Sequence record: ON528726
Source of the DNA: Shigella phage ESh16
DNA length: 64,000 bases
Direction: 5' to 3' (one strand)
Made by a program: the position numbers and the translations under genes
In this document: in pieces, positions 14,198 to 15,195 of the stretch
Layout: each line of letters opens with the position of its first letter
Numbering within the stretch: position 1 is the stretch's first letter
Notes under the pieces: generated by a model
The model's input: the letters and a program-made list of their open reading frames with translations, nothing else
What the model was told of the DNA's origin: nothing
Database searches by the model: none

Positions 14198-14814
14198 TGA
14201 TTAAATTGGTATTCGCTTATTCTCCAACTAAAACGGTTGAAGGCTTTAATGAATTAGCATTCGGTTTAGGTGATGGTTTACCATGGGGACGAGTTAAAAA
14301 GGACCTCCAGAATTTTAAAGCTCGTACTGAAGGCACAATTATGATTATGGGTGCTAAAACGTTCCAGTCATTGCCTACATTACTTCCAGGTCGTAGTCAT
14401 GTGGTGGTATGTGATATTAAACGCGGCTATCCTGAAACTAAAGATGGTGATTTGGCTCATTTTTATATTAGCTGGGATGAGTATGTTACCTTAGTAGCCG
14501 GTGGACGTATCAAATTATCCGGTCCTAATACAAATTTTGAAACGTTTATCGATTCTAGCGAAAATCACATCAGTGTAATTGGCGGGCCTGCTCTGCTATA
14601 TGCTGCATTACCTTATGCAGATGAAGTAGTTGTTTCTCGCATCGTTAAAAGGCATCGTGTTAATTCAACGGTTCAATTAGATGCAAGTTTTCTTGATGAT
14701 ATAAGCAAACGTGAAATGGTTGAAACCCATTGGTATAAAATAGATGAAGTAACAACCCTTACGGAATCAGTATATAAAAATGAAATAACACGTGGCGGAA
14801 AATATGAATTTTAA
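14197..14814 (+). CDS. frd: Dihydrofolate reductase (205 aa, with a short C-terminal extension relative to the T4 length I recall)
   Basis: [40 protein letters not shown]... DHFR fold motifs; synteny upstream of td. Confidence 0.93.
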
Positions 14815-15151
14815 TTATTACCCTATTCTATTAGAAGAAGACGCGAAACAGCCAAAGTGGCAGGGTCCTCAGTTTATTAAAGGCGTCTATCAATTAGTAG
14901 TTCCTAAAGACAAAATTTATAGCAGTTGTTTCACTGAATCCGCTTGTAGTATTTTTGGTAATAATTCTCCGTATTGGAATTTTGATATAAAGCTTGACAG
15001 AAATATCGATATTTGGTTGAAAGCTATGGATATTGGCAATATCACGTTTGATGAGAATAATTATCATATTATTGGTCGCTTTTCCAAACGTGGTAAAGAA
15101 TTATATTTTACGCCTGAAATCGAAAGAAAATTTGATGCTAAACCGTATTGA
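14804..15151 (+). CDS. Hypothetical ORFan (about 115 aa) inserted between frd and td
   Basis: ORF track (GTG at 14792; first ATG at 14804, [12 protein letters not shown]...); no recognisable motif; occupies a junction where T4 frd and td overlap. Confidence 0.5.
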
Positions 15152-15195
15152 TTATTAGCTTCATAAAATGTATTATAATTTATATAAGGTACTAA

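Follow-up and report, generated by a model that had tools for sequence, protein, structure and literature searches.

ORF115 and the polymorphic frd-td interval of T-even phages

In phage T4, the dihydrofolate reductase (DHFR) gene frd and the thymidylate synthase gene td share a stop/start overlap, ATGA, which was reportedly described by Purohit and Mathews in J Biol Chem in 1984. In the genome segment of Shigella phage ESh16 analyzed here (record ON528726), a Tequatrovirus (T4-like) sequence of 64 kb to which we refer as the window and whose positions serve as coordinates throughout, an open reading frame (ORF) of 115 amino acids, ORF115, and a short spacer lie at this junction. Is the stretch 14776-15195 a cassette that was inserted into the gene overlap, as the original prediction had proposed from the sequence alone, or does it belong to the locus? 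Here, we argue that it is very probably the commonest allele of a polymorphic frd-td slot in Tequatrovirus and not a new insertion. T4 is the exception, since it lacks a common small gene, and ORF115 is the majority allele in the genus.

ORF115 and its family at the frd-td interval

The indel of about 400 bp that had been proposed relative to T4 is present. The window holds 418 additional bases at the frd/td overlap (the indel measures roughly 416-418 bp), and this segment is bounded by a repeat. The proposed ORF of about 115 codons follows frd (Table 1) and has no match in Pfam or NCBIfam, but it is not the ORFan that it had been taken for. ORF115 matches the hidden Markov model of phrog_1928 (E 6.2e-36, residues 4-111 to profile positions 2-125 of 126), and tblastn detected homologues in 580 phage records. 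Copies at least 90% identical were found in 362 records, including T6, RB3, RB6, RB14, RB18, RB27, RB32, RB68, and Shfl2, and the T2 genome also has the gene; copies less than 60% identical were found in 218 records of T4-like phages of Klebsiella, Enterobacter, Edwardsiella, Salmonella, Serratia, and Erwinia. Over 551 bases around the frd-td junction, the window shows 100% identity to two Shigella phages, ESh34 and ESh36, while identity to hundreds of other T-even phages amounts to 96-97%. RB32ORF229c (DQ904452), RB3_232, T6 KMB99_gp163, and the T2 copy represent the same gene at the same position, with 96-98% amino acid identity, the same flanking repeat, and the same spacer before td. Their identity to ORF115, together with frd upstream and td downstream, marks ORF115 as the orthologue of RB32ORF229c and T6 gp163; from the T2/RB3 protein it differs in two residues, E12K and N54S.

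The locus was thus already known, in the form of deposited identical sequences, a gene listed as coding for a hypothetical protein in the records of T6, RB3, RB32, and others, and a repeat noted in GenBank in 2006, when the RB32 record DQ904452 included the remark "flanked by 9 bp repeat." Literature searches found no paper discussing ORF115, phrog_1928, RB32ORF229c, or frd-td junction variation. In some GenBank records ORF115 is mislabelled "putative homing endonuclease" or "putative dihydrofolate reductase," and we rejected both labels as unsupported. A homing endonuclease was defined by a GIY-YIG, HNH, LAGLIDADG, His-Cys box, or PD-(D/E)xK domain; searches of the ORF and 24 family members against Pfam and NCBIfam (E up to 1 or 0.1) returned no nuclease domain, and none occurred among the structural matches. 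Product names are inconsistent in MZ501052, MZ501065, MZ501066, MZ501089, PV287714, OQ466432, PV390659, and NC_054944, with the 68-amino-acid ORF described below called "flagellar biosynthesis protein," and in the T2 record LC348380, ORF115 has no annotation and td is named a "hypothetical protein."

The family is not confined to Tequatrovirus but occupies the frd-td interval of at least six other T4-like genera. An orthologous ORF, here ORF1, lies directly after frd, usually overlapping the frd stop, and before td in Kanagawavirus Q7622 and PEi26, Jiaodavirus PKO111, Marfavirus F48, Gelderlandvirus STML-198, and Winklervirus CHI14. Most of these genera possess a second ORF (ORF2) of 113-124 amino acids between ORF1 and td, which is a paralogue of ORF1 (blastp E values down to 8e-13; hhalign probability 99.5%, E 2.7e-23) and itself matches phrog_1928 (E 7.9e-33). 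ORF2, found in the comparison sequences L010, L011, L013, L020, L021, L027, and L028, carries an additional conserved insert, WALVIxGxxPTIxxYKRNP, and is missing from Tequatrovirus and Jiaodavirus; no paralogue of ORF115 was detected elsewhere in the 64-kb window. The fullest array seen, frd-ORF1-ORF2-ORF3-td with an ATGA overlap at every junction, occurs in the metagenomic T4-like contig L027, whose ORF1 is 63% identical to ORF115 and whose ORF3 (69 amino acids) is 81% identical to a Tequatrovirus ORF of 68 amino acids described below. The arrays of the other genera thus share with the window the ORF1 placed right after frd and the motifs QxKW, HG(I/V)Y, and GRFxKxG. They differ in being tightly overlapped, usually with a second paralogue and sometimes with an ORF3 of 42-69 amino acids, whereas the window has ORF1 only, followed by an invariant noncoding spacer of 44 nucleotides (nt).

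Between the window and the other genera, amino acid identity amounts to 32-46% for ORF1 (L027, 63%), 45-57% for frd, and 74-78% for td, which implies that the ORF and frd have diverged at roughly similar rates. Among candidate donors of ORF115 none was close, the nearest being 63-66% identical at the amino acid level. That the same position between frd and td is occupied in many genera, and that divergence runs parallel to that of the flanks, indicates that the ORF is native and old. On this comparative evidence, the ORF family appears ancestral at the locus, a conclusion that is well supported, and ORF115 is best described as an old resident, neither a foreign cassette nor specific to the window phage.

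Conservation and predicted structure both characterize ORF115 as a gene in its own right. The ratio of nonsynonymous to synonymous polymorphism (pN/pS) was 0.00-0.07 in most pairs, with 8-17 synonymous versus 0-3 nonsynonymous differences in the informative Tequatrovirus pairs, a pattern indicative of a genuine gene under strong purifying selection. A profile search of 1.84 billion representative proteins returned only 23 representatives, nearly all of 95-116 amino acids, and the family thus appears small and phage restricted. In an alignment of 24 family sequences, Q16, W19, G27, G91, K95, and G97 are invariant, and length and motifs are kept down to 27% identity. An AlphaFold2 model computed from the family alignment reached a predicted local distance difference test score (pLDDT) of 90.2 and a predicted template modeling score of 0.83, with the order beta1-beta2-beta3-helix-beta4-beta5. 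BFVD returned only uncharacterized T4-like phage proteins, and neither ORF115 nor the 24 family members produced a match in Pfam, NCBIfam, PADLOC, or PDB sequence profiles. The predicted fold is confident but without a solved relative. The protein is most likely a small, dispensable accessory factor of beta-rich topology that may resemble an oligonucleotide/oligosaccharide-binding (OB) fold, and its conserved QxKW loop, together with the GRFxKxG hairpin, probably provides a face for binding a ligand or partner. It speaks against this structural interpretation that ORF115 is not basic but neutral, with an isoelectric point of 6.6. In two IMG/VR contigs, L008 and L009, the C terminus reads ...AKPLII instead of ...AKPY owing to a 2-nt deletion near the ORF115 stop, and the spacer is 7 nt shorter, its other 37 nt being unchanged.

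Alleles, boundary repeats, and direction of change

Three alleles occupy the slot in Tequatrovirus. ORF115 with its spacer, as in the window, T2, T6, and RB3, accounts for the 362 records mentioned above. An ORF of 68 amino acids (phrog_9550) with ATGA and TAATG overlaps at its ends, as in fFiEco06 and SH7, occurs in about 138 records. The direct ATGA overlap is represented by T4, RB55, RB59, vB_EcoM_112, G28, F1, FN, FL12, FL18, G2133, HY03, SG1, and JEP6. The overlap can be seen in the T4 record NC_000866, as the original prediction had stated, but it is not the normal state that it was assumed to be, given that the direct junction was found in only 32 phage records, about 17 of which are T4 itself. 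These counts come from phage records; IMG/VR yielded only 4-5 Tequatrovirus contigs, too few for population counts. The 68-amino-acid ORF is frameshifted in SH7 and shows 79-81% identity to ORF3 of a Marfavirus-like Klebsiella phage and of L027, and about 43% identity to a Phapecoctavirus protein. Measured against the full array of L027, Tequatrovirus genomes retain ORF1 alone (window, T2, and T6), ORF3 alone in the form of this 68-amino-acid ORF (as in fFiEco06), or none of the three ORFs (T4 and a few others). The ORF and its ORF3 counterparts are located at positions 804-1010 in fFiEco06 (L003), about 980-1185 in SH7 (L004), 2226-2354 in F48 (L013), and 3670-3879 in L027.

Comparison of the window with the sequences L001-L030 revealed two haplotypes on either side of the slot. 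Those of the frd 3' flank (window about 14480-14775) are about 25% apart (~75 differences in 294 nt), and those of the td 5' flank (15196-15475) are about 16% apart (~45 differences in 280 nt). The frd haplotype, the junction allele, the td haplotype, and the td intron assort independently, which amounts to local mosaicism, and in the flanking sequences the phages with the T4-type junction are scattered rather than grouped. The slot is an old polymorphism shuffled by recombination.

A repeat search identified the boundaries of the segment as a direct repeat (family D3) with a spacing of 416, whose copies are identical at 12 of 14 positions, including 8 nt of exact match. T2, T6, RB32, and HMD-9 carry TAAATGAAA as an exact direct repeat of 9 nt at the two boundaries of the ORF, and a 9-mer shared between the two 31-nt boundary windows arose in 0.8% of shuffles. 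Within the left copy, a vestigial mini-ORF consisting of a start and a stop, ATGAAATAA (14780-14788), is similar to the td start, where the counterpart reads ATGAAACAA. T4 shares with the window the flanking genes, the frd C terminus ...TESVYK, and the td N terminus MKQYQ, and its junction is what a window-type locus would give if the segment between the repeats were taken out. Simulated deletion of one TAAATGAAA copy together with the intervening 416-417 nt reproduced the T4 junction exactly, a match judged by eye with the printed strings set in register. The T4 ATGA overlap is, in terms of sequence, exactly what recombination between the TAAATGAAA repeats flanking ORF1 would leave.

Regarding the polarity of the difference between T4 and T2, we lean towards a deletion between the repeats, with T4 as the derived state, which we hold to be moderately probable. 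In favor of deletion are the presence of the ORF family at the locus in many genera and the rarity and nonmonophyly of the T4 state. It is possible, albeit doubtful, that the Tequatrovirus ancestor instead had a T4/RB69-type frd-td ATGA overlap, that illegitimate recombination joined an ORF1 segment from another T4-like phage to td at a point a few codons inside the gene, leaving ATGAAATAA as a degenerate duplicate of the td start, and that T4 keeps the older state. Several observations agree with such an old join. The left junction contains a vestige resembling the real td start, to which it is identical at 12 of 14 positions, and the exact 9-nt boundary repeat is rare among shuffles. RB69 (Mosigvirus), a member of the nearest genus sampled, shares the direct junction of T4, GTGTATAAATGAAACAATACC, as does LF82-1. 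In the outgroups, Frd continues after ...VY with a tail of only 3-9 residues that overlaps the next gene and leads straight into ORF1 without a td-like piece; hence, the 16-18 nt AAA(AA)TGAAATAACRCGT are extra in Tequatrovirus, as is apparent when its junction (VY/KNEITR/GGKYEF) is compared to the frd tail of L028 (VY/GEKREF). The vestige, the RB69 junction, and the extra bases are explained no less well by ORF1 having been re-installed long ago in a T4-like overlap than by a pure deletion. Re-installation is, however, opposed by the lack of a donor closer than the candidates of 63-66% identity, by the divergence of the ORF following that of frd, and by the ORF family and ORF3 being native to the same interval in many genera. 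Moreover, an A-rich stretch followed by ATGAAA is a generic T4-type start context, and the repeat might partly be convergent. T4-type phages are also nonmonophyletic in the flanks, and their junction is rare. Whichever polarity applies, the indel goes back to an old event and is not peculiar to the window phage.

These data leave little room for a recent insertion of a mobile cassette (moron, homing-endonuclease gene, or transposon-like element) specific to the lineage of the window, which we regard as very improbable. The variable presence of the ORF among Tequatrovirus genomes would agree with such an event, as would the endonuclease label in some GenBank records, but no nuclease, transposase, or other domain was found in Pfam, NCBIfam, or PADLOC, the boundaries have no terminal inverted repeats, and the ORF overlaps frd and is devoid of an upstream promoter of its own. 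The occurrence of the gene in 362 records and, at the same locus, in other genera effectively refutes it. A moron or autonomous cassette was rejected in view of an ORF start overlapping frd by 11 nt, the absence of any terminator-like site in 14100-16200, and a promoter-like sequence placed after the ORF. A transposable element with target-site duplication was rejected since the only ORF has no transposase or recombinase domain and the best inverted repeat is internal; this pair (14794-14812 and 15096-15114, 79% complementary), considered as element ends, is one of 19 similar pairs at chance level. Less credible still is the notion that ORF115 represents a frame left open by chance, or a pseudogene in decay, within noncoding filler between frd and td. 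The absence of a recognizable domain and the two IMG/VR copies in which a 2-nt deletion alters the last two codons could be taken in its favor, but it is contradicted by the pN/pS values and the excess of synonymous differences in the informative pairs, by the retention of length and motifs across the 24 sequences, and by the confident AlphaFold2 fold (pLDDT 90). We thus return to ORF115 as a common, long-established allele of the slot.

The frd tail, the spacer, and expression of the locus

The long frd variant of the window was correctly recognized in the original prediction: Frd comprises 205 amino acids, compared to 193 in T4, T2, and T6, the last 12 codons (14779-14811) being extra on the side of the window. 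The ATGA at 14780-14783, thought to be a cryptic site in frame with frd, is off frame. Alignment with T4, T2, T6, RB32, and others revealed AAAAA (14776-14780) in the window versus AAA. With three A residues, the frame GTA TAT AAA TGA lets Frd end with ...SVYK at 193 amino acids; the two additional bases in the A-run put TGA (14781-14783) out of frame, and frd is therefore extended by 12 codons to TAA 14812-14814, 8 nt past the ORF115 start codon. Consequently, the start of ORF115 overlaps the extended frd by 11 nt, whereas the frd genes of T2 and T6 stop 20 nt upstream of the ORF. The five-A form, with an frd product of 204-205 amino acids overlapping the ORF start, was present in 3 of 11 sampled ORF-bearing sequences (window, RB3, and ZCEC15) and occurs on both of two very different frd haplotypes. 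The sole variable codon of the tail, after ...NEIT, encodes R, C, or H among the three five-A sequences, and the tail therefore looks unconstrained, like a tolerated by-product of homopolymer slippage. This addition of two A residues is the only peculiarity of the window relative to T2 and T6 at the frd-td slot.

The short AT-rich spacer with a -10-like element and the ribosome-binding site of td were found where the original prediction had placed them, after ORF115 (44 nt, with TATAAT) and 6 nt upstream of the td start (TAAGG), respectively. None of the 44 spacer columns is variable among 11 distinct sequences, apart from one 1-nt T indel. By comparison, third-position columns are variable at 27% in ORF115, 30% in frd, and 44% in td, as are 29% of the columns in the 28 nt before ORF115. 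The contrast between the invariant spacer and the variable third positions therefore shows that the spacer is under constraint. It contains several promoter-like sequences (Table 1), one of which resembles a MotA-dependent middle promoter. MotA boxes have the consensus (a/t)(a/t)(a/t)TGCTT(t/c)A near -30, 11-13 bp before a -10 element TAnnnT. Its core pattern, GCTTYA-N11-13-TANNNT, occurs in the window more often than expected (15 occurrences versus 6.7 +/- 2.7, with none of 100 shuffles reaching 15), and one of these occurrences lies in the spacer. Sigma-70-like hexamer pairs were not enriched in the region (12 versus 9.2 +/- 3.1 expected). No RNA structure was apparent in the spacer, its folding energy being no different from that of shuffles (z -0.17), nor did it contain an Rfam family above threshold. 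A match to Yar_1, a Drosophila long noncoding RNA model, on the minus strand at 14835-14906 scored 23 bits versus a gathering score of 50 and is regarded as spurious.

An additional td promoter in the spacer is thus plausible from sequence, and TAAGG appears to be a better Shine-Dalgarno sequence than anything upstream of T4 td. ORF115 would be translated from the frd-td early/middle polycistronic mRNA. Given that the frd stop is placed 8 nt inside ORF115, the geometry would favor termination-reinitiation, with ribosomes ending frd at TAA 14812-14814 and reinitiating at ATG 14804, assisted by GGCGGA, which is mostly conserved in 11 relatives. Translation of td would be initiated independently from TAAGG, with an extra spacer promoter of the MotA middle type or the sigma-70 type being probable, and the ORF115 product would act as the small, dispensable accessory factor proposed above. 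T4, in contrast, is without ORF115 and spacer, so td is translated only by coupling to frd. Some points caution against this scheme: about 7 of the 15 MotA-core matches are expected by chance, the first core base of the box in the spacer is A where the consensus has T, and the promoter, the translational coupling, and the function of the protein are all matters that we infer. Of the original idea of a cassette inserted into the overlap and uncoupling td, the exact indel bounds stand, and so do the Shine-Dalgarno sequence of td itself and the invariant promoter-like spacer. The foreign cassette does not, since T2 and T6, the relatives that the original prediction had singled out for comparison, and many RB phages share the arrangement. 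The part that holds up best is that td is physically uncoupled from frd and maybe has its own promoter.

The order of genes on the plus strand is gene 32, three small frd.x ORFs, an extra ORF of 81 amino acids, frd, ORF115, the spacer, td, nrdA.2, nrdA.1, and nrdA. The 81-amino-acid ORF is also present in RB3 (RB3_234), T6, and RB32 (RB32ORF231c) and is missing in T4, where the gap between frd.1 and frd measures 72 nt. The td gene of the window is uninterrupted, containing neither the group I intron nor I-TevI. The td intron is carried by T4, RB3, fFiEco06, T6, HY03, and G28, and its presence is independent of the frd-td junction allele.

Table 1. Features of the frd-td locus in window coordinates
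Feature	Position	Strand	Remarks
Extra 81-aa ORF	13952-14197	+	phrog_3183; abuts frd start; no Pfam match
frd (dihydrofolate reductase)	14197-14814	+	205 aa, long variant; Pfam DHFR_1, E 2.8e-18; from ORF list
A-run	14776-14780	+	5 A; 3 A in T2, T6, RB32, HMD-9, and T4
Left direct-repeat copy, AAATGAAATAACAC	14778-14791	+	Repeat search
Shine-Dalgarno-like GGCGGA	14794-14799	+	4 nt upstream of ORF115 ATG; putative ribosome-binding role
ORF115	14804-15151	+	115 aa; ATG 14804, TGA 15149-15151; phrog_1928
TTGATT, 17 nt, TATTAT	15148-15153, 15171-15176	+	Spacer; promoter-like, putative function
AT-rich spacer	15152-15195	+	44 nt, between ORF115 and td
MotA-box-like tTAGCTTCA, 12 nt, TAATTT	15155-15163 (GCTTCA 15158-15163), 15176-15181	+	Promoter-like, putative function
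TATAAT	15174-15179	+	Spacer; promoter-like, putative function
td Shine-Dalgarno TAAGG	15185-15189	+	6 nt before td ATG
Right direct-repeat copy, AAATGAAACAATAC	15194-15207	+	Spans td start codon
td (thymidylate synthase)	15196-16056	+	286 aa; Pfam Thymidylat_synt, E 1e-94, profile 1-266 of 266

A small gene in the thymidylate operon

It is tempting to speculate, although we consider it improbable, that the phrog_1928 proteins and their tandem paralogues constitute a structurally new family tied functionally to the thymidylate cycle. Such proteins may modulate DHFR and thymidylate synthase, or link the two, within the complex synthesizing deoxynucleoside triphosphates, or they may shield this complex from host defense, and the spacer would then provide a MotA-type promoter giving td an expression program unlike that of T4. 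A conserved family that is encoded in the thymidylate operon, includes a tandem paralogue, and has a confidently predicted fold without a solved relative is a reasonable, if not urgent, target for functional work.

T4 is atypical at the frd-td junction, and its famous ATGA overlap represents a rare allele, not the norm of T-even phages. The locus provides a small and clean example of variation among T4-like phages, combining three interchangeable alleles per slot, a repeat-bounded indel, a shift of a stop codon by a homopolymer, and free reassortment.

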